Source of the DNA: a virus
Taxonomy: Duplodnaviria > Caudoviricetes
Strand: one strand, 5' to 3'
Length of the DNA stretch: 54,809 nucleotides
IMG/VR virus record: IMGVR_UViG_3300012985_000013
Location: 1-54,809 of that record
The position numbers and the translations under genes are program-made. Shown here piece after piece: positions 2,825 to 51,758 of the stretch. Under the pieces are notes generated by a model. The model searched no databases. It was not told the DNA's origin and worked only from the letters and a program-made list of their open reading frames with translations. Numbering within the stretch: position 1 is the stretch's first letter; each line of letters starts with the position of its first letter.

Positions 2825-2876
2825 GCTGTTCCCTTCGACTTATGTGATACAGAATAGCCTGCCCCAAGTTGGGGCG

Positions 2877-3056
2877 CTACCAGGGCAACGTCACGGGCTC
2901 GCGACGAACGTGCTCGGCGTCGAATGCGCGGCGTGCGAGATCGTGCGCCCAGTCCGGCAGGATGCCGACCTCGCCGCGGTAGCTGACCGCCGTGACGTAG
3001 TAGTCGGGCATCCGCTGGGGCGGGAACAGGCCCCGCCCCAGCGTGCACTCAGGCAT
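2877..3056 (-). CDS. Hypothetical protein (59 aa)
   Basis: Manual translation MPECTLGRGLFPPQRMPDYYV...PVTLPW; fills the gap, overlaps upstream stop. Confidence 0.55.
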   Translation of the reverse strand: MPECTLGRGLFPPQRMPDYYVTAVSYRGEVGILPDWAHDLARRAFDAEHVRREPVTLPW

Positions 3057-3528
3057 CCCGCAACTCCGGCCGCAGCCAGTACGTGATCGTCGCCCGGTTC
3101 GAGTCCCATTCGACCTGGTCGTCCATCTCGGTCACGGGGAACCATGCCATGCCCGCCGGCGGCTCCGGCAGCATGTCCAGCATTGCGGTCCACTCGACCA
3201 GCAGCTTCCGGTTGAACTCGTCGATCTGCTCACGGACCAGCCTGTCGAAGGGAGTCTCCTCGATGAAGAGCGCCGAGAATCGATCGTCGACCTCCCCCGC
3301 GTAGAGCTTGTCCAGCGAGATGATCTCGTCGACCCATGCGACCGGCGCGTCAGGCCCGCGCGCGGGCAGATGGAGCGTCGTCGGCACCGTGTTATGCAGC
3401 GTGGGGCGGCCGGCGGCGCGGATCCTGCCCATGACCTGCTCGTGGTGCATGGCCCGGACGCGCTCGTGCGCGCGGCGCAGGCCGCTGTCGCAGCCGCGCT
3501 CGGAGCAGAGGTGGTGCGTGTACGTCAT
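3049..3528 (-). CDS. Hypothetical protein
   Basis: MTYTHHLCSERGC..., ATGA overlap with upstream gene. Confidence 0.65.
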   Translation of the reverse strand: MTYTHHLCSERGCDSGLRRAHERVRAMHHEQVMGRIRAAGRPTLHNTVPTTLHLPARGPDAPVAWVDEIISLDKLYAGEVDDRFSALFIEETPFDRLVREQIDEFNRKLLVEWTAMLDMLPEPPAGMAWFPVTEMDDQVEWDSNRATITYWLRPELRDA

Positions 3529-3731
3529 CGGGTCCGTCCCATCTGGCGGTCGTACCCCGCCTGCCACTCGTCGTGCGACATCCGCCACGCTGACGGATCC
3601 TCGGGCTCGGCGCGCCGCGGCGCCTGCGAGCCCATCGCGGCCAGCGTCGCACGGCCGGCGGCCGCCGTCGGGCGCACGAACACGTCACGCAGCACGGCGC
3701 CGAGGAACGCCATGAAGCTGAGGAAGATCAC
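3525..3731 (-). CDS. Small membrane-anchored hypothetical protein
   Basis: Hydrophobic N-terminus, 4-bp overlaps on both sides. Confidence 0.6.
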   Translation of the reverse strand: MIFLSFMAFLGAVLRDVFVRPTAAAGRATLAAMGSQAPRRAEPEDPSAWRMSHDEWQAGYDRQMGRTR

Positions 3732-4108
3732 CGCGCCGCCTCCTCCACGGCGGCGATGAACGCCTCGGCGTCCTCGCGGAACAGCGTCACCGTCACCGGG
3801 ATGGTGACCTGCACGATGTCCTCCCGGAGACGTGCCATCCGCACCTCGGCGCCTTGCAGCATGATCGGGTCACCGATGCCGGCGTCGTGCTCCTTGAGGC
3901 CGAAGACGCGCGCGAGCGTCGACCACAGCCGGTTGGACTGGTCGCGGTTCAGTTCGTCGGTGCGCTGCACCGTCATCCGCGTGCGGTTCTCCTCGATCGT
4001 CTTCTCGGCGCGCTCGAGATCGACGAAGCTGTGACGCCACGGCGCGCGCACCATATCGTCCTCGATGCTGACAGCGCGCGTCTCGATGTGGCCGATGGTT
4101 TCAGGCAT
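3728..4108 (-). CDS. Hypothetical protein
   Basis: MPETIGHIE... after GAAGGA RBS. Confidence 0.7.
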   Translation of the reverse strand: MPETIGHIETRAVSIEDDMVRAPWRHSFVDLERAEKTIEENRTRMTVQRTDELNRDQSNRLWSTLARVFGLKEHDAGIGDPIMLQGAEVRMARLREDIVQVTIPVTVTLFREDAEAFIAAVEEAAR

Positions 4109-4265
4109 GGTCCTTCTCCTCGCTCTGGCCACGGTGCGTGCCGTGGCCCTGGTTGTTCTGGTGATCCGCCAGGATCTGCAGGCGGCGCTCGCGGCGGACG
4201 GTGCGCGCGACGGCGCGCGACCAGCCGCACGGGCAGGTGATGATGCGGACGGTGGACGGTGTCAT
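4101..4265 (-). CDS. Small hypothetical protein (CPCG...H motif)
   Basis: MTPSTVRIITCPCGWSR..., overlaps neighbours. Confidence 0.5.
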   Translation of the reverse strand: MTPSTVRIITCPCGWSRAVARTVRRERRLQILADHQNNQGHGTHRGQSEEKDHA

Positions 4266-4582
4266 GCGCGCTCCCGGGTGATGATGTGGACTAGGTGCTC
4301 GTCGACGAGGTCGGCACCCTCCACGAGGGCGACGCTCATGCCGCGCATACGCTCCTCGAGGAACCGCCGGTCGCCGTGCAGGTATGTGATGCGGCCGCCG
4401 CTCGGGAAGCGCAGCTGCATCGTCGGCTCGACCCGGCGCTCGACGTACTCGCCGAACCCGAGTTCGTGCATGAGCCACGTGTCGTCGTCCAGCTGATCGC
4501 GGGCGACGCTCCGCAGCGGGAACAGGCACAGGGCGCTGCGGCCCATCGTGGCGAGGGTCAGGCGCTGTGGCAGCACGCTCAT
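4262..4582 (-). CDS. Hypothetical protein
   Basis: MSVLPQRLTL..., ATGA overlap. Confidence 0.65.
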   Translation of the reverse strand: MSVLPQRLTLATMGRSALCLFPLRSVARDQLDDDTWLMHELGFGEYVERRVEPTMQLRFPSGGRITYLHGDRRFLEERMRGMSVALVEGADLVDEHLVHIITRERA

Positions 4583-5055
4583 GCCAGCTTCTCCACGAGA
4601 CGCAGCAGCCTCTTCATCTTGCGCCGCAGCTTGCGGGTGCGGCGGCGCTCCACGTTCAGCGCGCGCGTCAGTTCGTCGTTGCGCTTGTCCAGCCACTTCG
4701 CCCGGACGAGCAGTTCCTCGGGATCCAGTTCCTCCAGCTGCTTCGCCGGCGCCGTGAACTGAATGCCGCCGCGGCGCGTGGTGATCTCCCCGAACAGCGG
4801 GTAGGCGACGGCGGCTGGCGCGCGCCAGCCGCCGTCGGCGATGACCTGCAGGGGCACGTCGAGATTCTCGGCGAGCTTGCGGCGAGCCTCTTCGCGCGCG
4901 GTTTCGACGCCATCAGCCGGGCAGGTGCACTGGGCGGCGTCGATCGCCCGCCAGTAGCTGAACGTGTCATCCGGGGCGACCCAGTTACCGCGCAGGGACA
5001 GCAGACAGGGCGCGGGGTGCAGGAAGTGGTCGGGGACGGTGGTGGTATCGGTCAT
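4579..5055 (-). CDS. Hypothetical protein
   Basis: MTDTTTVPDH... after GAAGGGAAC RBS; basic coiled-coil C-terminus. Confidence 0.7.
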   Translation of the reverse strand: MTDTTTVPDHFLHPAPCLLSLRGNWVAPDDTFSYWRAIDAAQCTCPADGVETAREEARRKLAENLDVPLQVIADGGWRAPAAVAYPLFGEITTRRGGIQFTAPAKQLEELDPEELLVRAKWLDKRNDELTRALNVERRRTRKLRRKMKRLLRLVEKLA

Positions 5056-5384
5056 GAGGGGTTCCCTTCGGTGGTGGTGACAGGCATCTCGACGACGAGC
5101 CGCGACCACGGGATCTTCGGCTTCGAGGTGTCCTCGATGAAGTCGCCGTCCTCGTCCAGCACGGCCTCGCCGTTCTCGTCCTCGACCAGCGGGTACTCCT
5201 CGAAGTGCTCCCAGCGGTGCTCGGAGCGGAGGTTGCCGTCCTCGTCGGGGGCGAGGAGGTGGCCGGCGGCCTGCGCGCCGCGCATCGCCATGCCGATACC
5301 CATCTCCAGGACGCGGGCGCGGAGGTCGACGTTGTCGTAGGTGGCGCGCCCGACCGTGAAGGTCTGGCCGTAGGTGAGGATCAT
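5052..5384 (-). CDS. Hypothetical protein
   Basis: GAAGGGAAC RBS, 4-bp overlaps. Confidence 0.7.
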   Translation of the reverse strand: MILTYGQTFTVGRATYDNVDLRARVLEMGIGMAMRGAQAAGHLLAPDEDGNLRSEHRWEHFEEYPLVEDENGEAVLDEDGDFIEDTSKPKIPWSRLVVEMPVTTTEGNPS

Positions 5385-5599
5385 GCGCGGTTCCCTTCGA
5401 CGTGAATCTCGATCGTGGCGGTGACGCCCACGGTGTCTTCGAGGTGGCCTCGGCTGGCTTCGATCAGGCGCTGGACCATCTCGTCGCTGATGGTGGTGTC
5501 CAGCGGCAGCACGATGGTGGCATACGGCGCATTCAGGTCGTCACTGTCGGTCAGCGGCGCCCAGATGACGGTGCGGCTGTGGACCTTGCGGTCGCTCAT
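5381..5599 (-). CDS. Hypothetical protein
   Basis: ORF with 4-bp overlaps. Confidence 0.65.
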   Translation of the reverse strand: MSDRKVHSRTVIWAPLTDSDDLNAPYATIVLPLDTTISDEMVQRLIEASRGHLEDTVGVTATIEIHVEGNRA

Positions 5600-5738
5600 C
5601 GGGGTTCTCCAGTCTCGGGGTCGATCGGTCGGTTGTCGGCGGCCTCGTCCAGCAGCGCGAGGATCCGCGCCCGCTTGTCGGCGTAGGGCTCGAAGCCGGT
5701 GTTGCTCAGCACGACGGTGATGTCGGGCCCGCGGCGCA

Positions 5739-6224
5739 TCAGCGCACCTCGCCGGTGGCGAAGTCGACGGCGTCCATGAGGTCGGGATCGGCCTGCTCGC
5801 CGCGCCAGTCCGGCTGCGGGGTCTGCCGGCGCATCGCCGTCCACTCGCTGCGGGAGCCGCGCCACCCGTACCAGGGTGACACCTGCCAGCAGCGACCGGA
5901 GATGCGGTGGATCCAGCCGTCCTCGACGAGCTTCTTCATGGCGCGGTAGACGTTCTGCCGGCTGATGCCGGTGAGGCGGCCGATGTCGGCCTGGGTGAGC
6001 AGCGCGTATGGCGCGGAGACGCGGTACTCGGCGAGGATGGTGCCGAGGATGACCTGCTCGGTCTGCGTGAAGATCCGAGGGGCCTTCACGAGCACGTAGG
6101 TGTCGACCATGACGTATGCCGGTCCTTCCTGCTCTGAGGGCTTGCGCCGCTTCGCTTGCTTCACCTCGACGACGGTGCCGTCTTCGTACGTCTTCTGGAC
6201 CAGCGGCCCCTGGGTCTTGCTCAT
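5739..6224 (-). CDS. Winged HTH DNA-binding protein (RepL/MarR-like)
   Basis: LTQADIGRLTGISRQNVYRAMKKLVEDGWI HTH followed by wing WQVSPWYGWRG; GAGGAG RBS; first gene of the leftward operon. Confidence 0.8.
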   Translation of the reverse strand: MSKTQGPLVQKTYEDGTVVEVKQAKRRKPSEQEGPAYVMVDTYVLVKAPRIFTQTEQVILGTILAEYRVSAPYALLTQADIGRLTGISRQNVYRAMKKLVEDGWIHRISGRCWQVSPWYGWRGSRSEWTAMRRQTPQPDWRGEQADPDLMDAVDFATGEVR

Positions 6225-6537
6225 GGCCCTCCTCAGAGGCGTTTGGTGCTAGCAGAGACTACATTAGTATTCCCGCCAGACACCATGGGGCAGTCTGGGC
6301 AGACTACATGGCCGATCCGGGGTTTCCCCTACTCCCGACTGGCATCGGAGGGGTCTGGAGGAGGGTTCTTGTGTCTTATCTTCTTCTCCCATACCAGCCA
6401 CCTCGTCCTGGGCATCCCGTACTTCTGTAATACAGATATCCTACGGCCCGGCGGGGAATTCTGTATCACATATATCCCAGAAAATGGCGAGCATCCGGGG
6501 GAACGGAGAGCGAGCACCACCGCGCAACGGCGCGAAA

Positions 6538-6577
6538 CGGGCCCGGTCCCCCCTCAACAGGTAGGGCCGGGCCCGTA
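6538..6577 (-). terminator. Stem-loop downstream of the 296-aa gene
   Basis: acgggcccggtccc ... gggccgggcccgt inverted repeat ~20 nt after the stop at 6597. Confidence 0.55.
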
Positions 6578-6596
6578 TGCACGGTCCGTCACCGTG

Positions 6597-7487
6597 TCAA
6601 GCGGACACCGCCTCCCGCTTGCGGGGCGTCGCGGAACGCTTGCGTGCGGGGCGGGCGGGCGTGTCCTGCCCCTTGTCCTGCCCCTTGTCGGCATCGCCGT
6701 AGAGGCGCGTGACGGCCGCTTCGTCGGCGTCCGACTCGACGGATGCGAGCATCGATGCGAGCGCGTCGGGGTCAGCCGCGTTGACGGCCGCGAGGATTCG
6801 CGAGAGGGCGGATGCCGTGGCCGCATCCGCGAGGATCGATGCCGCGCCGCCCTTACGCGTGACGCGGTCGGCGATGACCTGGAGGAGGGTGAGCGTCCCG
6901 GCCGCGCTGAGGTCACGCTTACGGTCCGCGTCGGTGCGCCCATCGGCGGGGTCGGACTTAGGCGCGGCGGTCTTCCGGTCCGCCTCCGTTTCGGTCACGT
7001 CGGGCGTGCCGCCGACGGCGCGCGTTCCGCTCGCGGGCTTTGCGGTCAGCTCGCCGGTGCGCGCCTGGCGGAGTTCGTCGCGGACCGCCGCGACAGCCGC
7101 GTAGGCGGCATCGCCGTCGGTTGCCGCGTGCGCCATGTCAGCGGCGCGGGTGACGTCGGCCGCGCCGCCGTAGCTTGCGATGGTGTACAGCACGTGCACG
7201 ATTGCGTCGGACGCGTCCCCCACGTGGGACCAGTCGCGGGTGCCGATACGCGTGGCGACCGTGTGCAGACGCGACGCGTTGCCCTTACTGGTGCCCGTGT
7301 AGTACTCGACGGCGCGGGACGACATCCCGTGTTCGATGACCAGCACGTGCACGGCGCGGACCGCTGCCGCGATGCGCGACGCCGACGGCTCGAGTCCGGC
7401 GACGGCGCGGGCGGCGCGCTCGACGGCGCGGCGCACCTTGACGTCGAGGTCGGCGGCGGGAGCGATGGTGACGATTGCCTTAGGCAT
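6597..7487 (-). CDS. Ala-rich hypothetical protein with possible HTH; divergently transcribed early gene
   Basis: 296-aa ORF with its own sigma70-type promoter and downstream hairpin; GMSSRAVEYYTGTSKGNASRL is HTH-like. Confidence 0.75.
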   Translation of the reverse strand: MPKAIVTIAPAADLDVKVRRAVERAARAVAGLEPSASRIAAAVRAVHVLVIEHGMSSRAVEYYTGTSKGNASRLHTVATRIGTRDWSHVGDASDAIVHVLYTIASYGGAADVTRAADMAHAATDGDAAYAAVAAVRDELRQARTGELTAKPASGTRAVGGTPDVTETEADRKTAAPKSDPADGRTDADRKRDLSAAGTLTLLQVIADRVTRKGGAASILADAATASALSRILAAVNAADPDALASMLASVESDADEAAVTRLYGDADKGQDKGQDTPARPARKRSATPRKREAVSA

Positions 7488-7541
7488 TTCTTCGATCCTG
7501 TCTGCCCCGATTTGGGGCGGTTGGGTGCCGCTCCGTGTGAG

Positions 7542-7581
7542 CGACTAGGACAACAGTAAGTCCTAGTCGGCTACGTGTCAA
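7542..7581 (-). promoter_or_regulatory. Leftward sigma70/SigA-type promoter with -10 inside an inverted repeat
   Basis: Minus strand TTGACA (7581-7576), 17 bp, TACTGT (7558-7553); arms cgactaggac/gtcctagtcg. Confidence 0.8.
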
Positions 7582-7709
7582 GTGCGCGTCGGCGTGCCCC
7601 ACATTGGGGCGGCGGGCCCGCGCTAGGTGGCAGGAATGCTACGGGCGTAGGCATCGTGATGCCGGCGCGAGGGCCGCCCCAGGTTGGGGCGCGGGCACTG
7701 GTACAACGC

Positions 7710-7756
7710 TTGACACAACGGCTCAACTAGTGTAGAGTTGTTTACTAGTTGAGCCG
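7710..7756 (+). promoter_or_regulatory. Rightward sigma70/SigA-type promoter with -10 inside an inverted repeat
   Basis: TTGACA 7710-15, 17 bp, TAGAGT 7733-38; 13-bp arms cggctcaactagt/actagttgagccg. Confidence 0.85.
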
Positions 7757-7830
7757 CGGAATGTCGCGGATTTCGGGGCCGGTCGCGGCCTCATCGAGTG
7801 CCCCAGATTGGGGCGGAAAGGTGCGTCATC

Positions 7831-7950
7831 ATGGCACGCTACAGGCGGGTTGCACGGCTGAGGATCGCCCTGGCGCTATGGGCCCTGTCCGGCGGATACG
7901 GCATCGTCGGCGGCATCGCGGCGCGCCTGGCGGCAGGAGTGGATCGATGA
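7831..7950 (+). CDS. Small membrane peptide (39 aa)
   Basis: MARYRRVARLRIALALWALSGGYGIVGGIAARLAAGVDR after GAAAGG RBS. Confidence 0.55.
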   Translation: MARYRRVARLRIALALWALSGGYGIVGGIAARLAAGVDR

Positions 7951-8165
7951 CGCGCCGACAGAGCTACGTCACCCCGGCGCGCCAGACGCGCCTACGTATC
8001 ACCCCGCGTGGACTGGCGCTGGTCAATCTCGCATTGGCGCTCGCCCTCGCGGCGGCCGTGGGGTGCCTCGCCCTGGCGGCGGCAAGCCTCGCCACGGATG
8101 CGCCGCCGACGTGCGAGGGGCGGACCGTCGTCGACGCGGGACCGTGCGCGGGAGTGTCGCGATGA
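7947..8165 (+). CDS. Small membrane protein
   Basis: LALVNLALALALAAAVGCLALAAA hydrophobic stretch; ATGA overlap. Confidence 0.6.
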   Translation: MTRRQSYVTPARQTRLRITPRGLALVNLALALALAAAVGCLALAAASLATDAPPTCEGRTVVDAGPCAGVSR

Positions 8166-8305
8166 CGCGCCGCGCCTACGACAGGACCAGGTGGGACCGG
8201 CTGCAGGCGTGCGCGCTCACCGTGGGCATCGCCCTGAGCGGCACGGTCGCCGCGGGTGTCGCCCTCCTCCTGCCTGCCGCCGTCGCGATCGGACTGTTCC
8301 GATGA
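8162..8305 (+). CDS. Small membrane protein
   Basis: MTRRAYDRTRWDRLQACALTVGIALSGTVAAGVALLLPAAVAIGLFR; ATGA overlaps. Confidence 0.6.
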   Translation: MTRRAYDRTRWDRLQACALTVGIALSGTVAAGVALLLPAAVAIGLFR

Positions 8306-8544
8306 CCATCAACGAAGATCGCCCCAACCTGGGGCGCGCCGAGCTACCGACGTTCGTCCTGGCCCGCACGCCCAGCCGTCGACCGACGCTGCAGCACGTC
8401 TTCGTGCTCAACGAAGATGGGCGCGAGGCGTCGGCGTGCGGACTGGACCTGACCCAGTGGAGCCGCGCCTACCAGCCCGCTCCGATCCGCGCCATCCTGT
8501 GCATGAAGTGCGCTCGTATCACCCTCGATGGAGGTCTGTCATGA
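8302..8544 (+). CDS. Small putative Zn-binding protein
   Basis: H...CG...CMKC pattern. Confidence 0.65.
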   Translation: MTINEDRPNLGRAELPTFVLARTPSRRPTLQHVFVLNEDGREASACGLDLTQWSRAYQPAPIRAILCMKCARITLDGGLS

Positions 8545-8625
8545 CTCAGCAGTCCAGCGGTCCGCGCCCGCCGTTCGAGCCCGCGCCCCGCCCCCGCCCG
8601 CGTCCGCGCCAGACGGCGGCGTGAC

Positions 8626-8892
8626 GTGGCTGTCAACGAAGATCGCCCCATGTTGGGGCACGTCATCGCCGAGAGGTTCTCGACGCTGCGCGTGGCCAAC
8701 CTGGAACTGAACAGGTGGCAGCGCATGGTCGACCGCGGCATCGAGCGTCGCATCCCGCGCGAGATCCGCGAGGCAGCGCGCCTCGCGGACGAGGCGCTCG
8801 ATGCCCTGATGTTCGGGGTCACCGCGCACGAACTGCAGTGGGCGCACATGCCCGACGAGTGCCCGATCTGCAAGGGGGAGGTGCAGCTGTGA
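8626..8892 (+). CDS. Hypothetical protein
   Basis: ORF with C-terminal H..H...CPIC. Confidence 0.65.
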   Translation: MAVNEDRPMLGHVIAERFSTLRVANLELNRWQRMVDRGIERRIPREIREAARLADEALDALMFGVTAHELQWAHMPDECPICKGEVQL

Positions 8893-9086
8893 CCGTCAAC
8901 GAACGGCCGCGCGCCGAGATCCTCGACGCGCCGCACATGCGCGACAATCGCCTGTTCATCGCCGAGACGACGGACTACCCGATCTCGGGCGACAAGATCG
9001 CCGTGTTCCTCGACGACCCCGGGCACGGGCGCGTGCGTCGCATGGAACTCGGCGACCTGCTCTGGCCGCGGGTGCGCGGTGAGTGA
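8889..9086 (+). CDS. Hypothetical protein
   Basis: GTGA overlap; MTVNERPRAEIL... Confidence 0.6.
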   Translation: MTVNERPRAEILDAPHMRDNRLFIAETTDYPISGDKIAVFLDDPGHGRVRRMELGDLLWPRVRGE

Positions 9087-9314
9087 GGTCGAGCGCCCCA
9101 AGGTGGGGCAGACGTGGCTGCACGAGGCGAGCGGCTACTGGTATCGCTGCACCCGCGCGTGGCCGGCGATCGTCTTCCAGGGCTACGGTCGCACCCGCCG
9201 GCCGAGTGAGCGCGCCCTGGCCTCCGGCGCCTGGCGTCGGGTGCTGTGAGCACAGTCAATGAACATCATTGTCCCCTTGCGTGAGAGGCTCACTTGCTCC
9301 ACGCTGTGTCCTAG

Positions 9315-9355
9315 TTGACACAGGGGACTGACTAGGATACTGTTTTTCCTAGTCA
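9315..9355 (+). promoter_or_regulatory. Sigma70/SigA-type promoter with -10 inside an inverted repeat
   Basis: TTGACA 9315-20, 17 bp, TACTGT 9338-43; arms tgactagga/tcctagtca. Confidence 0.85.
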
Positions 9356-9412
9356 CGACAGCCTGGCTGGCTGTCAACGAACGCCCCAATCTGGGGCAGA
9401 AGGGAACCCGCC

Positions 9413-9706
9413 ATGCAGACCTACATCGCACGGCTCACCGACCGGGGATCGCTCAGCGAGCCCATCATCTGGCGCACCGAGTCCATCGCCGAGGCGCGCG
9501 AACTGCTCGCCAACGTCGGCAGCTGGCAGACCGCGCCCGACAGCGGCGACCAGATCCTGCTCAGCGACTCGGCGTTCGTCGACGTCTTCGACTACCCGAC
9601 GCACGCCAAGGATCCCGACCTGGCCCTCGTCATCGAGGACCAAATGCCCCGCCTCACGTTCTCCATCGGAGTGCGCGGCGGCATCCGGCGGGAGGCCCAC
9701 CGATGA
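9413..9706 (+). CDS. Hypothetical protein
   Basis: GAAGGGAAC RBS; C-terminal GVRGGIRRE. Confidence 0.75.
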   Translation: MQTYIARLTDRGSLSEPIIWRTESIAEARELLANVGSWQTAPDSGDQILLSDSAFVDVFDYPTHAKDPDLALVIEDQMPRLTFSIGVRGGIRREAHR

Positions 9707-9948
9707 CCGTCACAATCGAGCAGGTGTCGCTCGCTCTCAACATCTACGGCGAGCCGTACGTGAACGAAGGAGACTCACCTCGCTGGGCGCTGTACGCCGA
9801 CAGCGACTCGGGCGTGGTGACCGCCGCCACCCTGGCATCCGGCGATATGCCCAAGGATCACCCGCTGTATGGCGCGGAGGATGAGTGGCTGTACGGCGAC
9901 GACGTCCTCGAGTTCCTGGCACGAGAGGACGTGGTGGCAGATGTCTGA
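9703..9948 (+). CDS. Hypothetical acidic protein
   Basis: GGAGG RBS, ATGA overlap. Confidence 0.7.
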   Translation: MTVTIEQVSLALNIYGEPYVNEGDSPRWALYADSDSGVVTAATLASGDMPKDHPLYGAEDEWLYGDDVLEFLAREDVVADV

Positions 9949-10318
9949 CTCAGGCCGCCCCAACCTGGGGCACCTCGTCGGTCGGCAGGTCCGCCTCACC
10001 GGCGAGGCGTGGGACGGTGCGACCTACCCCTCGCGGTGGAGCGTCCACACCATCGTCCGCATCGACGACAACGGCATCCCGCGCATCCATCACGAGGGCC
10101 ACAACTGGCTCGTGATCCTGCCCGACACCAAGGAGTCGCCCGCCATGCGCCGAGACTGGTCGGCCGTGCTGACCGAGCCGAGCGACGCCGTCGCCCGGCT
10201 GCAGAAGTGGGCGCGCGACGTGGCGCAGCTGCTCGCCGTCGAGGGTCAGCGATGGACCGAAGAACTCGAGGCGCTGCGCGTCATCGAGAACGATCTGGAC
10301 CTGGAGGCACAGCGATGA
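9941..10318 (+). CDS. Hypothetical protein
   Basis: MSDSGRPNLGHLVGRQVRLTG... Confidence 0.7.
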   Translation: MSDSGRPNLGHLVGRQVRLTGEAWDGATYPSRWSVHTIVRIDDNGIPRIHHEGHNWLVILPDTKESPAMRRDWSAVLTEPSDAVARLQKWARDVAQLLAVEGQRWTEELEALRVIENDLDLEAQR

Positions 10319-10611
10319 TCCGCATTCTGCTGCACGCCGTGCAAGACGCCCGCCTGCTGGAGCAGGTCGCCGGCATCCTCGAGACGGCGGTCGAGGTCGA
10401 CCCTGACCACTGGGACAAGGTGAAGGATCAGCCCGGCATCGTCGACCACTACGGCCACCACACCGACACGCGATCGTCGACCGTGCTGGTCAAGGAGTCC
10501 TGGTCGCCCTGGTACTACCGGCTGACCATCCGCCCCGGCGAGAACGCGGTGTACGACAACCTCGCCGCCCTCATCGCATCCACCCTCGTCGCCACCCCGG
10601 CGACGGTCTGA
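10315..10611 (+). CDS. Hypothetical protein
   Basis: GGAGG RBS, ATGA overlap. Confidence 0.7.
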   Translation: MIRILLHAVQDARLLEQVAGILETAVEVDPDHWDKVKDQPGIVDHYGHHTDTRSSTVLVKESWSPWYYRLTIRPGENAVYDNLAALIASTLVATPATV

Positions 10612-10805
10612 CCGCCCCAACCTGGGGCAGAGAGAAGCACCACCATGGCCACCATGACCAACGAGCAGCGCCGCGTTCACCGTGCGCTCGGCAGCGCAGA
10701 GAAGCGCCTCATCCACCTCGTCGTGTTCGAGGCGGATCCGAAACAGATCGCCCGCACCGAGGCCACCGTGAAGCGGCTGACCTCTGCCTGGAAGGCGTGC
10801 CAGCG

Positions 10806-11267
10806 ATGACCGACCTCGTCGGCCGCAAGGTGCGCCTGACCGGCGCTGGCTACGCCAAGTACATGTTGGCGCAGAGCGTACGCACGGTCGCCGTGGATGA
10901 CTCTCGCGTCGACGGGACCGTCGGATGCCGGACGGGAGACGGCTTGCTTTGGACGTGGCTCAACGATCGCGACCACGAGTTCGCCGGTGTGCTGCTGCCC
11001 AAGCGTGTGCGCATCTGGGTCTACTCGTTCGCCGTCCCGGACTCACTCAGCGGGTTCGAGTGGGGCCCCGTCGACGACGATCCGATCGGGGCCGCACGAC
11101 TGCACGCTCTCTTCGACGAAGAGGCGGCGAACCCTATCGGGTACGGCGCTCTCGTCGAGATGCACCTCGCGCTCGACGGCGCGGCGAACATGACCGACTA
11201 CATCGACGGCGAACTGCAGGATGCAATCGCTCTCGGCCTGGTCGGCAAGATCATCGGGAGGTACTGA
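10806..11267 (+). CDS. Hypothetical protein
   Basis: MTDLVGRKVRLTG...; N-terminus resembles that of 9941..10318. Confidence 0.7.
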   Translation: MTDLVGRKVRLTGAGYAKYMLAQSVRTVAVDDSRVDGTVGCRTGDGLLWTWLNDRDHEFAGVLLPKRVRIWVYSFAVPDSLSGFEWGPVDDDPIGAARLHALFDEEAANPIGYGALVEMHLALDGAANMTDYIDGELQDAIALGLVGKIIGRY

Positions 11268-11554
11268 TGAGCGACCTCGACCTGCGGTCCATGTTCCCGG
11301 AGTGGCTCAGCTTCACCGGCGAGGACATGAAGCTGCGCCGCAAGCGGGAGGTGACCACGCCGTTCCGCAGGTGGGAGATCCTGCCGCGCTACGGCTCGGC
11401 CGAGTCCGACCGCTGGACCATCATCGGCGCGCCGGCGCCCGGCCCGAGCAACCCGGCCCGCGACTACGAGGACGGCCAGTACCCGTCGCTCGCCGCGGCG
11501 TACGACGCCCTCAACCAGTGCCTCGCGCACGACGACGGCACCAGCGAGAAGTGA
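11267..11554 (+). CDS. Hypothetical protein
   Basis: GGAGG RBS, TGATG overlap. Confidence 0.7.
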   Translation: MSDLDLRSMFPEWLSFTGEDMKLRRKREVTTPFRRWEILPRYGSAESDRWTIIGAPAPGPSNPARDYEDGQYPSLAAAYDALNQCLAHDDGTSEK

Positions 11555-11603
11555 GCAAATCGCTCAACCAACCGCCCCAGGTTGGGGCAGAAAGAGCAGG
11601 GAC

Positions 11604-12245
11604 ATGAGCAAGTTCCAGAACGCATACGACGAGCAGGCGTACAGCCTGTCGCTCGACGCGACCCAGGACTCGGACGGCGACCAGGCGTCGCCGCTCGGGT
11701 GGTTCGGGTGCCTCACGCTCGACGTCGACGCCGACGGCGAAGGGATCGTCGAGCACTACGGCACCCGCCACCTACTGGTGCACGAGTCGAGCGAGGGCTT
11801 CGTCACGGTGATGCCGTTCGCTGACGGCGACCTGCGCGACCGCCGGTTCAAGGATCTGCAGCAGGCGTACGAACTGTGGGAGGCGGGCGTCGCTGACGCC
11901 GAGATCAAGCTGGCGATCGACAACTACCTGCAGGCCGCCGTGTTCACGTCGAAGATCGTGGACCCGTCCGTGCCGTGGTCCGGCGAGGCCCAGGTGCAGG
12001 CGCGGGACGAGGTCATCGAGTTCGTGACCTCCAACATCCGGGAGATCCGCCAGTTCCAGGAGGCGACCGGCCATGGCTGGGAGCAGATCGGCATCGACTT
12101 CTGCCTGACCCGCAACCACGAGAGTGCTGGCTTCTGGATGCGCGACCACGCCGGGGCCGCCGGCAAGGCGCTGACCGACGCGGCCCGGATGTGGGACGAG
12201 GTCGACGTGGAGATCGACGACAACGGAGAGCAGGTGTTCGCATGA
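11604..12245 (+). CDS. Hypothetical acidic protein
   Basis: 213-aa ORF containing GIDFCLTRNHESAGFW. Confidence 0.8.
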   Translation: MSKFQNAYDEQAYSLSLDATQDSDGDQASPLGWFGCLTLDVDADGEGIVEHYGTRHLLVHESSEGFVTVMPFADGDLRDRRFKDLQQAYELWEAGVADAEIKLAIDNYLQAAVFTSKIVDPSVPWSGEAQVQARDEVIEFVTSNIREIRQFQEATGHGWEQIGIDFCLTRNHESAGFWMRDHAGAAGKALTDAARMWDEVDVEIDDNGEQVFA

Positions 12246-12634
12246 GCAAGATCGAGTGGATCACAGCGCCGCAGATCGAGGTCGGCGGCAGCGCGCGGCC
12301 GGACTCGGTGACCGACGAGCACGGCATCCAGAACAGCGTGGCGATCATCACGCTCACGAACCGGCACAGCGGCGACGCTGTCGTCATCGAGGGTCGGCCC
12401 GAGCATCTGCTCAACCTGGCCCGCGCGCAGCTGCGCGTCGCCGAGCAGATCGTCGAGGCGACGATGCGTGACCCGCAGCTGCGATCGATGTACGGGCTGA
12501 CCGCACACGTCGGAACGGTCGAGTTCATCGCCGAGGCGCGGGCTCTCGGGGCGGACGACGGGGCTGTCGCCAGGGTCATGCTCGATGAGCGAGCGCCCCA
12601 AGTTGGGGCGGTGGGGGAGGAGGACCGTGGCTGA
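12242..12634 (+). CDS. Hypothetical protein
   Basis: ATGA overlap; coding-like codon pattern. Confidence 0.7.
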   Translation: MSKIEWITAPQIEVGGSARPDSVTDEHGIQNSVAIITLTNRHSGDAVVIEGRPEHLLNLARAQLRVAEQIVEATMRDPQLRSMYGLTAHVGTVEFIAEARALGADDGAVARVMLDERAPQVGAVGEEDRG

Positions 12635-12929
12635 CCACCGCTTCGTCGTCACCGTCTCGGGATGCACGGCTGAGCAGGCCGAGCAGGTCATGAGCGAGCG
12701 CATCAACGTAGACGAGGACTACGGCTTCGAGTACACGATCGGCTGGGAGGGGACCGCGCCGACAGGGTATGTCGTCGGCGCACCGGACACCACGCCGAAT
12801 GGCGGGGGCTACTGCGGCGAGATGGACGACAACTTCGTCTGCACCCGCGAGCCCGACGGTCACTCGCAGCACGCCGCCGGCAATGGGTACACGATCGCTC
12901 ACGTGTGGGGAGAGCCCGATGCCTCGTGA
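12627..12929 (+). CDS. Hypothetical protein (C..C..H..H motif)
   Basis: GGAGGAGG RBS; CGE...CTREPDGHSQH. Confidence 0.7.
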   Translation: MADHRFVVTVSGCTAEQAEQVMSERINVDEDYGFEYTIGWEGTAPTGYVVGAPDTTPNGGGYCGEMDDNFVCTREPDGHSQHAAGNGYTIAHVWGEPDAS

Positions 12930-13185
12930 GCGGGGCGGGTGGCTCACGCCGGACGCCCTCAAGACGGCCGGCATCTGCGAGCAGTGGGCGCATGAGCAGT
13001 CTGACTTCCGCAACGAGGTGAGCCTGTGCCACGACGAGCGGCAGGGTGGCTACGTGGTGCAGCACGTGCACATCCGATTCACCGACGGCGTGCGCGAGGT
13101 GCACGCCTGGCAAGTAGGCGAGCGCATCCACCTGGCACGGCGCCAGTTCCGCAAGGTTGTCCAGTCCCTCGGAGGTCGGGCATGA
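12919..13185 (+). CDS. Hypothetical protein
   Basis: ORF overlapping both neighbours. Confidence 0.6.
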   Translation: MPRERGGWLTPDALKTAGICEQWAHEQSDFRNEVSLCHDERQGGYVVQHVHIRFTDGVREVHAWQVGERIHLARRQFRKVVQSLGGRA

Positions 13186-13373
13186 AGTGGGTCATCTACT
13201 GGTGCACGGTGCTCGCCATCATCCTGCTGTTCGCGCTGCATAGCAGTGAGGGCGTCGCGGACGATATGCCGCCCGCGGTGTTCGGCCTGCTCCATGGTGT
13301 CGCCGCCGTCCTGGTTGGCGTCGTCGTGCAGCAGTTCTACATCGCGATCACCAAGCGCGAGAAGGGGGATTGA
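13182..13373 (+). CDS. Small two-TM membrane protein
   Basis: MKWVIYWCTVLAIILLFAL...VFGLLHGVAAVLVGVVV. Confidence 0.65.
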   Translation: MKWVIYWCTVLAIILLFALHSSEGVADDMPPAVFGLLHGVAAVLVGVVVQQFYIAITKREKGD

Positions 13374-13411
13374 CACAAGGCGGTGACTAGGATAGAGTTC
13401 TTTCCTAGTCA
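13370..13411 (+). promoter_or_regulatory. Sigma70/SigA-type promoter with -10 inside an inverted repeat
   Basis: TTGACA 13370-75, 17 bp, TAGAGT 13393-98; arms tgactagga/tcctagtca. Confidence 0.85.
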
Positions 13412-13472
13412 AGAAGTGGAGCATCCGCTCCGACGAACCGCCCCAATCTGGGGCACCACGAAGGGAATCATC

Positions 13473-14498
13473 GTGACCATCACGGCAACCACCACCACCT
13501 CCACGCTCGCCGGCTTCATGGCCGGTCGCCACTGGATCGGCCACGCCGAAGCCGCCGAGAAGTTCGACGGCGCCGTGCCGCGGCAGGCTGCGCTCGACCT
13601 GCTCTCCTACCCGCTGGCCGAGGGCAACGTCAAGGTCGAGGTCATCACCGAGGATGGCGTGCTCGTCATCGACGACCCGAAGCGCAAGGCGATCGTCCGC
13701 GTCGACACCGGCAAGGTGTTCAACTACACGGCGCTCGGCTACAAGATCCACCAGCCTGACGAGTGGCTGCTCAAGCACATGGAACTCATCACCGACGGCG
13801 GCCTCGAGATCGGCACCGTCGCGGTGACCAAGGGCGGGGCGCTCGCCATGCTGCAGGCTGAACTGCCCGAGGCGCGCATCGCCACCGCGCCCGGCGCTGA
13901 GCCGGTGCCGCACCGCCCGCACTTCATCGCGGCCACCAGCCACGACTCGTCGATCGCCACCACCTACGGCGCGGGCACCAAGGTGCTCGTCTGCGAAAAC
14001 CAGCTGGGCGTCGCGTCGTTCATGAAGGGCGGACTCATGGACGTGTTCGTCAAGATCCGCCACTCGGCCAACTCGCTGGACCGGGTGTTCGAGATCCGCC
14101 AGCGCCTCGGCCTGGTGGTCGAGGAGATCGGCGACGCGTTCGACCTGGAGTTCCGCACCCTCGTCAGCCAGCACGTCAGCGACGCCCGGTTCTACGAGAT
14201 CGTGAAGGACTTCACGGGCGAGGACCGCGCGAAGGAGGGCCGGTCGAAGACCATCGCCACCAACAAGGGTGACGCGCTGCGCAACATGTGGAAGAACGAC
14301 CACCGCGTGGCGCCGTGGCGCAACTCGATGTACGGCGTGCTCGCCGCGTTCAACACGGCGTCGCACCACGACGGTGCGTTCGGCCGCGACGAGGAGAAGC
14401 GGATCGAGCGCAACACGGTGCGCACGATCGAGGGCGGGTGGGACGAGTTCGACACGAACGTCCTGCGCATGGCCGGCGCGAAGCTGCTGGTCGCCTGA
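13473..14498 (+). CDS. DUF932 / TIGR03299-like phage-plasmid protein
   Basis: Motifs YKIHQP, TSHDSS, VCENQL, YGVLAAFN match the family as recalled; GAAGGGA RBS before GTG. Confidence 0.75.
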   Translation: MTITATTTTSTLAGFMAGRHWIGHAEAAEKFDGAVPRQAALDLLSYPLAEGNVKVEVITEDGVLVIDDPKRKAIVRVDTGKVFNYTALGYKIHQPDEWLLKHMELITDGGLEIGTVAVTKGGALAMLQAELPEARIATAPGAEPVPHRPHFIAATSHDSSIATTYGAGTKVLVCENQLGVASFMKGGLMDVFVKIRHSANSLDRVFEIRQRLGLVVEEIGDAFDLEFRTLVSQHVSDARFYEIVKDFTGEDRAKEGRSKTIATNKGDALRNMWKNDHRVAPWRNSMYGVLAAFNTASHHDGAFGRDEEKRIERNTVRTIEGGWDEFDTNVLRMAGAKLLVA

Positions 14499-14512
14499 CC
14501 TGACTCATCACG

Positions 14513-14545
14513 GTGGGCGGGGGATGTAGACGGGCCCCCGCCCAC
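14513..14545 (+). terminator. Stem-loop after the DUF932 gene
   Basis: gtgggcgggg...ccccgcccac, no U-tract. Confidence 0.45.
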
Positions 14546-47619: not shown

Positions 47620-47677
47620 GGACACCCCTTTCGTCGTGAGAAATGTATCACGTAATAGCGCCACAACTTGGGGCAGA

Positions 47678-49481: not shown

Positions 49482-49512
49482 GGAGGGGTGCCCCAGGTTG
49501 GGGCACCCCTCC
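49482..49512 (-). repeat. 14-bp perfect stem-loop built on the GCCCCA-N3-TGGGGC palindrome, after the major tail gene
   Basis: ggaggggtgcccca-ggt-tggggcacccctcc. Confidence 0.8.
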
Positions 49513-49524: not shown

Positions 49525-50478
49525 TCAGGCGAACGGTACCGTGACCGTGGTCGAGGCCCAGGTCACGCCGTTCTGGCTCGCGAGCACCGTGTAGGTGCCA
49601 GCCTCCTCGTAGACGTGCGACCCGGCACCCGGCACGGCGACGTAGTCCCAGCCGCCGTCCCCGAAGTCGTACCAGACCGGGCCGGTCGACACCGGCGCGA
49701 CGACGAAGTCCGCCGTCATGCCCGTGGTGTCGCCGGTGTCCTCGGTGGCCGTGACGCTCGTGAGAGCGGGCAGGGTCGGGTTGAGGACCGGGCGGGCGCC
49801 GATGGCCTCGGTGGGCGGGGCGACCGTGGTCGTCTGCATGCGCAGCGCCGCGGTGCGCGACACCGGCTGGAACAGCGGGCCGGCGACGCCAAGCTCGTCA
49901 AGCTCGACGGCGTACGGGCCGTTGCCCCACTGGTTGCCCTCGCGGGTGGAGGCGCCGGTGATCTGGAAGTTGATCGCGCCGTTCTCCACCGAGAGGTCGC
50001 CGACGATGCCGCCGACCAGGCGGGGCAGCAGGAGGTAGCCGTACTCGCCCTGGGCGTTCGGGTCGTCGCAGACGTCCGCGCCCTGCGAGCCGACCCAGAC
50101 CTCCAGCGCGAAGCCCTCGTCGTCCAGCTTGATCTTCGTGTCGATCTCGAGGCCGACCACCGTGCCGTTCGCGTCGAGCACGAGCGTCTGCTTGGTCATG
50201 ATCTCGAAGTACTCGAAGTCCACGCGGCAGAACGTGACGTCGATCCCGTAGCCGGCAAGCTCGGTGACCGACGGCTCGTACACGCAGCGCTTGCCGCCGA
50301 AGTTCGGGACGTTGATCTCGTCGGTGTCGACCGTGTTGGCGGTGAACGCCACAGTGACGATCCCCTCCGAGACGGCCTGGTTGTACTCGCCGGCGACGAT
50401 GCGGCCGCAGTTGTCGAGGCGCGTGACGCGCGTCGACCGGCCGCGAACCGGCGTCAGAGTGCGAGAGGTACGGGGCAT
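49525..50478 (-). CDS. Major tail protein with C-terminal PKD/Ig-like domain
   Basis: RVTRLDNCG N-terminus; YDFGDG...HVYEEAGTYTV PKD motif. Confidence 0.85.
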   Translation of the reverse strand: MPRTSRTLTPVRGRSTRVTRLDNCGRIVAGEYNQAVSEGIVTVAFTANTVDTDEINVPNFGGKRCVYEPSVTELAGYGIDVTFCRVDFEYFEIMTKQTLVLDANGTVVGLEIDTKIKLDDEGFALEVWVGSQGADVCDDPNAQGEYGYLLLPRLVGGIVGDLSVENGAINFQITGASTREGNQWGNGPYAVELDELGVAGPLFQPVSRTAALRMQTTTVAPPTEAIGARPVLNPTLPALTSVTATEDTGDTTGMTADFVVAPVSTGPVWYDFGDGGWDYVAVPGAGSHVYEEAGTYTVLASQNGVTWASTTVTVPFA

Positions 50479-50481
50479 GGC

Positions 50482-50922
50482 TCAGTCCTCCTTCGGGACG
50501 TCGTCGCCGGCGGGCTCGCCGGACTCATCGGTGAGCGCCGGTGCGGCGTCGAGCACCGCCTGCATCTGCTCGACCTTCTCGGCCTTGGTGCCTTCGAGGG
50601 TCAGGCCCGGGAAGTGCTCGGCGCCGAACGCGTCGATGTCTGCCACGGTCGCCTTGTCGGGGTCGGGCAGTTCCGGGATCGCGGTGGCTTCGAGGTGGAT
50701 GGGCTCGCCATCCGCGCTCTCGCTCACGATCTCATCGGCCTCCTCCGACTCGACGACGGAGTCGCCCAGCGGGATCAGGAAGCCGCCGAGGGCGGTGCTG
50801 GTGAGGACGGCGCTGGCGTCCAGCCCGCGCTCCTCTGCGAGTGCGAGCGCCTTAGCGGCGTTCTCACGTCCGCGTCCCGAGAGCAGTTCGTAGCCCTCGG
50901 GGATCTCGACCTTGGGGGTCAT
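50482..50922 (-). CDS. Hypothetical acidic protein
   Basis: ORF in the structural operon. Confidence 0.7.
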   Translation of the reverse strand: MTPKVEIPEGYELLSGRGRENAAKALALAEERGLDASAVLTSTALGGFLIPLGDSVVESEEADEIVSESADGEPIHLEATAIPELPDPDKATVADIDAFGAEHFPGLTLEGTKAEKVEQMQAVLDAAPALTDESGEPAGDDVPKED

Positions 50923-50937
50923 CTCTCTGTCCTCTCG

Positions 50938-51705
50938 TTACGGGGTCGTGTCGACGTCGACCGCATAGCGGAAGTCGCAGTCCACACCGATGGCGTAGAC
51001 GCGCTCCGCGATGGCGGCGCCGAGGTTCTCGTGGAGCAGCATGGCCGCCGCGCGCACCTCGGAAGAGGCGTACACGGCGAGCCCGCCGATGGCGATGATG
51101 CGGGTGTTCTGGTCGTCGACCGCGGATCCGGTTGCCAGTACCCAGTTCCCGTTCGCGGTGACGAGGCGGCCGTCCTCGCGCTCCAGCACGCCCTCGGCGT
51201 ATGCCAGGTCGGCGGCGACGCGCGACATCAGGATGATCGGGGCGCCGACGTAGTTCACGTCTGCGTGGTCTTCGACCTTGCCGATGGCCTCGGCGTACGT
51301 GGCACCCGTACCAGGCGTGGGGGCGGCGGCCGCCCAGTTCCACAGCACGGACTCGATCGACCGGTCCTCGCCCTGATCGAGCAGGGTCCGCGCCTGGTCG
51401 AGGTAGGACTCCTCGTCGTCGCCACCGAGGTAGCACTCGACGCCGGCGTATCGCGCGAACGGATCACCGATGGTCGTGAACTGCGAGATGCCGTCGAACG
51501 TCTTCGGGGCGTCCCCGATGACGTCGTCGTAGCAGCCTGCGCGCGTCGTCTTCGGAAGACCGCAGCCCGAGCTTTCCCAGGCCAGCCCCCCGGCCTGGTT
51601 GACGACCGCGAGCCGGTCGACGGGAATGAAGGCGCCGCCCTCGATGACCGTCTTGATGCCGCCCTGGCGGGGACGCCGGGTCGGTGCCTGTACCTGCAGG
51701 GCCAT
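50938..51705 (-). CDS. Second capsid protein (pentamer-type)
   Basis: Directly after the major capsid gene; GAGGAG RBS; arrangement as in Rosebush-like actinophages. Confidence 0.65.
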   Translation of the reverse strand: MALQVQAPTRRPRQGGIKTVIEGGAFIPVDRLAVVNQAGGLAWESSGCGLPKTTRAGCYDDVIGDAPKTFDGISQFTTIGDPFARYAGVECYLGGDDEESYLDQARTLLDQGEDRSIESVLWNWAAAAPTPGTGATYAEAIGKVEDHADVNYVGAPIILMSRVAADLAYAEGVLEREDGRLVTANGNWVLATGSAVDDQNTRIIAIGGLAVYASSEVRAAAMLLHENLGAAIAERVYAIGVDCDFRYAVDVDTTP

Positions 51706-51727
51706 AACCCACTCCTCTCAGGTTGGT

Positions 51728-51758
51728 GCCGGGGTGCCCCAGGTTGGGGCACCCCGGC
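51728..51758 (-). repeat. 14-bp perfect stem-loop built on the GCCCCA-N3-TGGGGC palindrome, after the major capsid gene
   Basis: gccggggtgcccca-ggt-tggggcaccccggc. Confidence 0.8.

Follow-up and report, generated by a model that had tools for sequence, protein, structure and literature searches.

The palindromic array

The window analysed here is the whole of IMG/VR virus record IMGVR_UViG_3300012985_000013 (54,809 nt), a linear phage sequence that is about 91 % complete, and it contains an array of 15 bp palindromes, GCCCCA-N3-TGGGGC (GCCCCANNNTGGGGC), concentrated among the early genes. The preferred reading, held tentatively and at slightly under even confidence on the sequence evidence, is that these palindromes are operators of a dimeric phage DNA-binding protein controlling early genes. 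We infer that the sites are bound by a phage protein, that its target is DNA and not RNA, which protein it may be, and that its effect would be repression.

Perfect copies were identified at 21 sites, compared with none in 100 dinucleotide-preserving shuffles of the window. When one mismatch is allowed there are 24 sites, through the addition of those at 7504, 15374, and 47660, against 0.31 expected, and when two are allowed there are 26 against 5.2 expected. As only two sites have two mismatches, which is at the level of chance, the family is all-or-none. The shuffled-sequence counts rule out a chance origin of the array, and in a palindrome scan GCCCCA-N3-TGGGGC is the most over-represented palindrome of the window. 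A first-pass annotation made from the sequence alone had reported 21 perfect and three single-mismatch copies, far in excess of chance, and both the counts and their coordinates are confirmed. The early clustering that it described is also present, with 18 of the 24 sites within 7504-21186 and four (7504, 7596, 7676, and 7800) surrounding a pair of divergent promoters.

The arms of the palindrome are invariant and the central triplet is variable. As the first-pass annotation had suggested, all 24 triplets have A first or T last, the chance of which is about 0.29 per site by hand arithmetic; every site in the window contains at least one full 7 bp half-site (GCCCCAA), a rule that is strand-symmetric. 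The edges are sharp: 14 of the 21 perfect sites have zero additional flanking pairs. Both orientations of the central triplet are present in the plus-strand arm of the genome and there is no consistent orientation. Such symmetry fits a dimeric DNA-binding protein, as had been proposed.

Nine sites overlap coding sequence, according to our own codon-usage gene calls supplemented by reading of the sequence by eye, in agreement with the earlier estimate of about nine. The sites at 8321, 8645, 9095, and 9957 are in N-terminal codons, those at 12595, 18410, and 28123 fall within the final 19-25 nt of the gene upstream, and two are internal to genes: a single-mismatch site (15374-15388) in the DUF7178 gene 14977-15558 and a perfect site (16386-16400) in gene 15904-16548. 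The coding sites are read in two frames, giving R-P-x-x-G and x-P-Q-x-G-A; the constraint therefore acts on the nucleic acid and not on the peptide, as the annotation had argued.

Position of the sites relative to genes and promoters

With gene starts called automatically, the distance to a start is 12-22 nt for 11 of the 21 perfect sites, compared with 3.7 % of 20,000 random placements. The most frequent arrangement is a palindrome that ends 15-18 nt before the start codon, just 5' of the Shine-Dalgarno (SD) sequence. Three such sites are in the leaders of the rightward promoters P_R1, P_R2, and P_R3: 7800-7814 (perfect), 16 nt upstream of ATG 7831, which opens a 39-codon open reading frame (ORF) identified by eye; 9383-9397 (perfect), 15 nt upstream of ATG 9413; and 13440-13454 (perfect), 18 nt upstream of GTG 13473 of a DUF932 gene. 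The leader of the leftward promoter P_L contains the single-mismatch site 7504-7518, 16 nt upstream of ATG 7487 on the minus strand, so that each of the four sigma-70-like promoters of the window has one start-associated palindrome in its leader. Perfect sites with this spacing are also found at 10614-10628 (2 nt past a stop codon and 16 nt upstream of ATG 10645), 11574-11588 (15 nt upstream of ATG 11604), and 14553-14567 (15 nt upstream of ATG 14583).

The start distance of 15-18 nt is held at 12595, 18410, and 28123 by intrusion of the palindrome on the 3' end of the upstream gene. The perfect site 12595-12609 falls in the final 25 nt of gene 12242-12634 and precedes GTG 12627 by 17 nt, and the perfect site 28123-28137 falls in the final 20 nt of the RuvC gene and precedes ATG 28154 by 16 nt. 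The third, 18410-18424 (perfect), is within the last 19 nt of gene 18129-18443 and 15 nt upstream of ATG 18440, however it is doubtful as a start-associated site because this ATG opens only about 18 codons (18440-18496). The ATG overlaps the upstream stop codon (ATGA), the next long ORF being in a different frame; it may be the start of a leader peptide, a mis-called start, or the product of a sequencing frameshift.

Four perfect sites lie 16-19 nt past a start codon and are read R-P-x-x-G, each in a gene with a start that overlaps, or abuts, the stop codon upstream. These are 8321-8335, 19 nt after ATG 8302 (R-P-N-L-G); 8645-8659, 19 nt after GTG 8626 (R-P-M-L-G); 9095-9109, 16 nt after GTG 9079; and 9957-9971, 16 nt after ATG 9941, the last two each being 8 nt past the upstream stop. 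Small tandem genes in 8302-9270 (starts 8302, 8626, and 8889) share the N-terminus M-x-(V/I)-N-E-(D)-R-P. The DNA word GTCAAYGAA recurs in this region, upstream of site 9383, and in the three related genomes described below.

Two perfect sites flank the divergent promoters, 7596-7610 being 14 nt upstream of the -35 box of P_L and 7676-7690 being 19 nt upstream of that of P_R1, and both are outside the transcripts of the two mapped promoters. At the ends of operons, the perfect site 21172-21186 is 3 nt past the stop codon of gene 20872-21168 and is followed by the purine-rich AGAAAG, then by a long hairpin, but by no gene, and the perfect site 33398-33412 is 2 nt past the last stop codon of the plus arm, followed likewise by a purine-rich stretch and a convergent hairpin, with no gene. 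The hairpins directly past these sites (21194-21240 and 33420-33452) are very strong, with 15-20 bp stems in stretches with z-scores of -6.4 and -3.1, respectively, and probably terminate the operons of the plus arm; that at 33420, at the convergent junction, could act in both directions.

In the late arm, the perfect site 2861-2875 is 36 nt upstream of GTG 2824 and the single-mismatch site 47660-47674 is 40 nt upstream of the start at 47619. Each is followed on the minus strand by a GTGATAC-type motif, GTATCAC/TATTCT after the first and GTGATAC after the second. This GTGATAC/GTATCAC motif occurs with a TGnTAnnnT-like extended -10 sequence at 2820-2860 and 47620-47660 (minus strand), and the same motif is seen in the relatives (G001 at about 7200-7244, G002 at about 59126-59166, and G003 at about 8160-8200); it is possibly a late promoter or the site of a second regulator. 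The remaining perfect sites, 49490-49504 and 51736-51750, are at the tips of hairpins with 14 bp stems just past the major tail protein and major capsid genes, respectively (z-scores of -5.7 and -4.7).

Intrinsic termination was considered as a function for the palindromes and rejected. A scan of 7000-22000 flagged only the palindromes at 8321 and 8645, on the antisense strand alone, and this is accounted for by GTCAAYGAA, which when read antisense provides a T-rich tail. There is no terminator-type T run on the sense strand, where the flanks are purine-rich SD sequences.

The first-pass annotation had interpreted the array as a phage operator or roadblock system. A real, selected nucleic acid element concentrated in the early arm is upheld by these data; the fixed distance to start codons had been overlooked, and it is not something that a pure roadblock requires.

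Variants of the palindrome in related phages

On its gene content, the phage, which is incomplete and uncultivated, is probably a relative of the Microbacterium Cluster EG phages. No near DNA match was found among named phages. The major capsid protein of Cluster EG phages such as OneinaGillian shares about 40 % identity with the 567 aa protein encoded at 51766-53469, and a tblastn comparison of the gene set against Cluster EG shows structural genes in common and in the same order (terminase, major capsid, major tail, tape measure, and minor tail). A search with the capsid protein identified three relatives in IMG/VR, G001, G002, and G003, at 61, 55, and 52 % identity, and a 4.9 kb fragment (L008) with a capsid 48 % identical that was outside the palindrome scan. 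Searches with the DUF7178 protein and with its alignment returned only the same three IMG/VR records, and among named phages there were distant matches only.

The exact motif of the window is present in none of G001, G002, G003, and OneinaGillian. Variants of it became visible only in an unbiased de novo scan for over-represented palindromes, which identified GTCCCA-N4-TGGGAC in G001 (15 copies) and G003 (16 copies), GTCCCA-N3-TGGGAC in G002 (27 copies), and TCAACC-N2-GGTTGA in OneinaGillian, a phage of M. foliorum (12 copies). RubyRalph, a phage of M. paraoxydans, has the same Cluster EG core as OneinaGillian (14 copies). In all of the genomes scanned the layout is the same: palindrome, one purine, SD sequence, and start codon. 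Sites near starts account for 6 of 15 in G001, 9 of 27 in G002, and 7 of 16 in G003, against about 3 % for random placement.

The positions of several sites are also conserved, as a motif scan of relatives had been suggested to determine, with the sequence variants being kept at orthologous places. The orthologues of 11604-12245 and 13473-14498 are preceded by a palindrome in all three relatives, and several further orthologues are so preceded in one or two of the three; among these, the site at 9383 is kept upstream of the G003 orthologue. The orthologue of the gene containing 8645 has the G002 variant in the same place, sites at the places of 21172 and 47660 are found in G001 and G002, and the sites beside the divergent promoters are also present in G002 and G003. 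Those at 28123, 49490, and 51736 are conserved in none of the three relatives, and for 18410 there is a homologue in G002 only, without a site nearby.

In the conserved N-terminus M-x-(V/I)-N-E-D-R-P-x-L-G, which contains the palindrome in both the window and G002, the motif is switched on synonymous third positions, CGC to CGT and GGG to GGA.

The sequence rules of the window hold in the relatives. A 7 bp half-site is present in every copy in G001 (GTCCCAA, 15/15) and G003 (GTCCCAA, 16/16) and in nearly all in G002 (GTCCCAG, 26/27), and zero additional flanking pairs are found at 9 of 15, 13 of 16, and 16 of 27 sites, respectively. The centres have no consistent orientation in G001 and G003. 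In the plus arm of G002, by reading, about 17 central triplets are C-rich on the sense strand and three are G-rich.

Operators or RNA elements

If the palindromes are operators, one sequence-specific, two-fold symmetric phage protein, made from the early arm, would recognize the 15 bp sites on double-stranded DNA and occupy about 20 of them, beside the two divergent early promoters, in the leaders of all four sigma-70-like promoters, and where many small early genes have their 5' boundary. Its binding would block RNA polymerase, such that early gene expression is damped or shut off as infection proceeds, a logic that resembles that of stoperators but would be orientation-free and in a lytic phage. 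Each site would abut the SD sequence on its 5' side or sit just past the overlap of coupled genes, and the fixed start distance is proposed to arise from the need for the site to be at a gene boundary yet clear of the SD and start region. Protein and sites would co-evolve, all copies having switched together between GCCCCA/TGGGGC and GTCCCA/TGGGAC and from N3 to N4.

Several findings argue for such a role. The all-or-none family (21 perfect, three one-off, and two two-off sites) and the sharp edges of the palindromes indicate that a specific sequence, not just a structure, is recognized, and the motif changes in concert at all copies between genomes. The rule for the seventh base of the half-site concerns bases that are unable to pair in a hairpin loop of 3-4 nt. 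Sites 7596 and 7676 are not transcribed from the mapped promoters, and G002 and G003 have the same arrangement. Among the transition-type single mismatches in the four genomes, G.U pairing is kept in five cases on the sense strand and five on the antisense strand, therefore there is no RNA-strand bias. The positions of sites are conserved at orthologues in the relatives, and candidate DNA-binding proteins are present in all four genomes.

The alternative that the palindromes are RNA elements is a real but minor possibility. Here, a hairpin of 6 bp with a 3 nt loop, 5' of the SD sequence or 3' of the ribosome footprint, would be read by an RNA-binding protein or endoribonuclease and would control how individual cistrons of the early polycistronic mRNAs are translated or processed, or how stable they are. 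Translational repressors such as T4 RegA and the MS2 coat protein, and the intercistronic processing sites of T7, are comparable systems. The placement of sites at a fixed 15-18 nt before or 16-19 nt after starts agrees with this, as does the predicted folding at start-associated sites, where the hairpin is local and the SD sequence is mostly unpaired; at 28123 the stem extends into the SD sequence. The placement also counts against operators, because so tight a link to start codons (11/21 against 3.7 %), held even where the palindrome intrudes on the upstream gene, suits a role in RNA or translation at least equally well. Likewise, the hairpins tipped by 49490 and 51736 indicate selection for single-strand structure, the central triplet of G002 is biased in its orientation, and the change of spacing from N3 to N4 between close relatives is trivial for a hairpin loop and easier for it than for a dimer. 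The promoters, furthermore, already have another inverted repeat across their -10 boxes. Against an RNA element are the positions of 7596, 7676, and their G002 and G003 counterparts, upstream of both divergent promoters, and the seventh-base rule, which is strand-symmetric and falls on bases that cannot pair in the loop. A sense-strand preference for G.U pairs is absent (5 against 5), the stems are not generally extended, the centres in the window, G001, and G003 have no consistent orientation, and no Rfam family matches the palindromes, the sole Rfam match in the window being a tRNA.

Candidate binding proteins

Three DNA-binding proteins are common to the window, G001, G002, and G003, and are candidates for the protein that would read the sites. 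The first-pass annotation had proposed 6597-7487, 5739-6224, and 20585-20875. The last two remain among the candidates: 5739-6224 (minus strand) encodes a 161 aa MarR-like winged helix-turn-helix (HTH) protein in the P_L operon, and 20585-20875 (plus strand) encodes a 96 aa tandem ribbon-helix-helix (RHH) protein present in all three relatives. The protein of 6597-7487 matches no family and among the three relatives has a homologue only in G002.

The best guess for the reader is the third, a 180 aa ArsR/SmtB-like winged HTH protein encoded at 32279-32821 (plus strand). Its structural model has a predicted local distance difference test (pLDDT) score above 90 over residues 50-120 and matches ArsR/SmtB-type winged-helix repressors (best E value 4e-4, probability 1.0, target-normalised template modelling score 0.65-0.71). 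The G001 orthologue has a palindrome 19 nt after its own start, and the gene in the window retains a degenerate relic of the palindrome at 32303-32317.

The reading residues of the RHH and winged HTH proteins were compared with the motif variants, and there is no clean correlation, which weighs against operators. G001 and G003 share one motif, yet their proteins differ in the RHH strands and in the recognition helix of 5739-6224. The recognition helix of 32279-32821 is invariant in 19 homologues, even between genomes with GCCCCA and those with GTCCCA.

The failure to link any phage protein to the sites would agree with a host protein binding the palindromes, or with the palindromes mimicking host regulatory sites, the variants then reflecting different hosts. 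The Cluster EG motif does not differ between diverged phages, which also fits. It is, however, the same on two host species, M. foliorum for OneinaGillian (12 copies) and M. paraoxydans for RubyRalph (14 copies), and a host factor is the least probable of the explanations considered.

Palindromes as possible joints of gene cassettes

The palindrome and SD sequence might also form the conserved 5' boundary of small gene cassettes, the short homology allowing recombination to shuffle early genes between related phages, much as the promoter-stem-loop cassettes do in T4-type phages. In two metagenomes a closer relative is represented by a collinear contig of 13.8-15 kb, which aligns to the window in blocks starting at 7710, 8630, 9370, 10608, 11562, 13321, and 14951; four of these seven starts are 6-15 nt upstream of a palindrome and two are at or just before promoters. 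Among the 15 joints listed, with 25 further joints unlisted, 7 of the 30 endpoints are within 15 nt of a palindrome, compared with about two expected from coverage by hand arithmetic. A variant in run X8 replaces 12495-12774 with 34 letters that still hold a perfect palindrome. Comparison of the window with G001, G002, and G003 shows gene presence and absence changing cassette by cassette, and genes for a YqaJ exonuclease and a RecT protein are present in the phage. Nevertheless, 15 bp is short for homologous exchange, and since mosaic junctions are at gene boundaries in most phages, some of the overlap with start-associated sites is automatic. Linkage of cassettes would also leave unexplained the untranscribed promoter-flanking sites, the all-or-none conservation, and the concerted switch of every copy, and it is improbable as the main function.

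Two loose ends, at 10629 and 11595, were considered as recombination breakpoints and were discarded as cross-matches of other copies of the palindrome, because the sequences continuing from them are the same as, or similar to, the flanks of 47660 and 21172, which are beyond the stretch aligned. A further loose end in metagenome reads is at 16402.

Comparison with known repeat systems

The stoperators of Cluster A phages, which are the sites of gp71 in L5, are asymmetric 13 bp sequences, oriented with transcription, to which the immunity repressor of a temperate phage binds. Both systems consist of at least two dozen short sites, mostly in short intergenic gaps at gene boundaries, with a proposed block to RNA polymerase. 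The analogy drawn in the first-pass annotation fails beyond this, on symmetry, on orientation, and because no integrase or other indication of a temperate phage is seen: the sites in the window are symmetric and orientation-free, and the absence of an integrase that the annotation had also noted is borne out, with no tyrosine or serine integrase domain found in the about 91 % complete record. The boxB element of lambda is a 15 nt GC-rich hairpin read by a phage protein, with about two per genome that act with boxA and the N protein; no N-type protein was seen in the window. The O_B sites of plasmid RK2 are about a dozen identical palindromes over the replicon for one global repressor, KorB, a ParB family protein. 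No match to the ParB_N domain was found in the window, the record being about 91 % complete.

The closest likeness is to the repeats of Microbacterium phages, to which the first-pass annotation had directed a literature check, and a system of the same organization is found in the available text of Jacobs-Sera et al. (2020; PMC7302621). Cluster EG phages are described there as having 8-10 copies of an 18 bp inverted repeat, GATCAACCNNGGTTGATC, usually 14-22 bp upstream of a start codon and at the genome's right end. The repeat is conserved in three diverged phages and is likened by the authors to the repeats of Cluster O, its function being given in that text as unknown (PMC7302621). The window and the Cluster EG phages appear to be of related lineage, with capsids about 40 % identical and the same gene order and with no nucleotide similarity. 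Both have an inverted repeat with invariant arms and a variable centre of 2-4 bp, in many copies among early non-structural genes, and both are without an integrase or repressor. Our own scan of the Cluster EG phages places the repeats 14-22 bp upstream of starts, followed by a purine-rich SD sequence. The differences are in the arms, 6-7 bp with N3 in the window and 8 bp with N2 in Cluster EG, and in copy number, 24 in the window against the 8-10 reported (12 and 14 of the 14 bp core in our count). Sites in the window are also found beside divergent promoters, in N-terminal codons, at operon ends, and on hairpins past the capsid and tail genes. The Cluster EG motif GATCAACCNNGGTTGATC is absent from the window and its three relatives, and among the genomes scanned the Cluster EG core is present only in OneinaGillian and RubyRalph.

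In Cluster O, the available parts of Cresawn et al. (2015; PMC4351075) report 34 copies of a 17 bp palindrome, TGTTCGGNNNCCGAACA, in Corndog. These palindromes have invariant arms and an unoriented centre, about one-third are in coding sequence, and their function is given there as unknown (PMC4351075). The authors set them apart from stoperators and from start-associated sequences (SAS), and describe them as not closely linked to translation starts (PMC4351075). Shared features are arms of 7 bp (6 in the window, 7 on at least one side), a 3 bp centre whose asymmetry ignores transcription, and many copies (more than 30 in Cluster O and 24 in the window) that are denser in the non-structural arm. 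About one-third of the copies are in coding sequence and many are near the 5' ends of genes, in lytic phages without an integrase. The phage groups are nonetheless unrelated, as are the sequences (TGTTCGGNNNCCGAACA in Cluster O), the nearest phages to the window being those of Microbacterium. Whereas about 14 of the 24 sites in the window are linked to starts, those of Cluster O are not closely so.

The SAS and ESAS of Cluster K and Cluster EF phages are repeated motifs at the starts of a subset of genes, with function described as unknown in the available text of PMC7302621. SAS are asymmetric 13 bp sequences that occupy the ribosome-binding site, whereas the palindrome in the window is just 5' of an ordinary SD sequence. 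A repressor of lytic phage D29 binds GC-rich direct repeats, according to the part of PMC12266134 available, and is related to the array only in spirit. Literature searches, with the supplementary figures of PMC7302621 outside them, found no published function for the Cluster EG or Cluster O repeats.

The array is thus of the same kind as the published Cluster EG and Cluster O repeats and is not unprecedented, its sequence version being new. At least two groups of lytic actinobacteriophages were already reported to have palindromes repeated at gene starts; what is added here is a set of four related genomes with a concerted, compensatory change of the motif and with positions kept. This comparative set provides evidence for a sequence-specific reader, a symmetry rule that favours double-stranded DNA, and a short list of candidates, turning an annotation curiosity into a testable regulatory hypothesis, for which the cultivable Cluster EG phages are best suited. 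Should silencing or translational control be true, it would bear on the engineering of actinobacteriophages and on the interpretation of their early gene programmes.

A broader proposal that joins these elements is doubtful as a whole. It would have orientation-free, genome-wide silencing in a lytic lineage, with one dimeric ArsR-like winged-helix protein from the end of the early arm binding about 20 palindromes at early cistron starts and early promoters and switching the early programme off. Re-tuning of protein and sites (GCCCCA, GTCCCA, N3, and N4) would give each phage a private code, and the sites would double as joints for the exchange of cassettes. If this were so, the Cluster EG and Cluster O repeats would be the same kind of system.

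Genome organization, promoters, and other features

The minus-strand genes at 1-7487 and 33479-54808 are late and structural, among them the major tail protein gene (49525-50478). The plus-strand genes at about 7831-33395 begin with small early genes and continue with those for a replication initiator, DnaB, SSB, RuvC, HNH, the YqaJ exonuclease, and RecT. The start of the window truncates the terminase gene (1-918) and its end truncates a MuF-like gene (54362-54808); by synteny (terminase, portal, and MuF) the missing part is the portal and most of the MuF-like gene. Comparison of the small early proteins with Pfam and PHROGs gave nothing informative, and a search of genome contigs with the DnaB helicase to find the host returned only three unrelated metagenome-assembled genomes.

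The four sigma-70-like promoters are near-identical (TTGACAC...TASWGT), with none expected by chance. P_L (7553-7581, minus strand) and P_R2 (9315-9343, plus strand) are TTGACA-17-TACTGT, and P_R1 (7710-7738, plus strand) and P_R3 (13370-13398, plus strand) are TTGACA-17-TAGAGT. Across the -10 box of each is a CTAG-containing inverted repeat of the form (T)GACTAGGA/TCCTAGTC(A), or GGCTCAACTAGT/ACTAGTTGAGCC at P_R1 (7720-7755). The individual repeats are GACTAGGAC/GTCCTAGTC at P_L (7543-7568) and TGACTAGGA/TCCTAGTCA at P_R2 (9329-9355) and around the -10 box of P_R3 (13384-13411). These repeats are a second, different operator-like element. Since it is these that the -10 boxes carry, the GCCCCA palindromes are not the promoter-occluding operators. 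Similar CCTAGT motifs are present near promoters in the relatives.

The PHROG label of 'RNase E' for 1270-1959 is not supported: the best fold matches are weak and to small terminases (E value 0.36 and worse; mean pLDDT 76), and there is no sequence match in the PDB. On the model, this protein, beside the terminase gene, is more plausibly small-terminase-like than an RNase. A tRNA-Asn (GTT) gene is present at 53697-53769 (plus strand), between the major capsid and MuF-like genes and on the opposite strand to its neighbours. The late minus-strand gene 36180-37262 contains three tandem 80 nt units in 36547-36851, spaced 108-117 nt and 69-75 % alike, suggesting that a domain is repeated in a tail-associated protein. 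A protein identical to that of 11604-12245 is present on a record from a 60,773 bp contig, and a fuller copy of the genome therefore probably exists.

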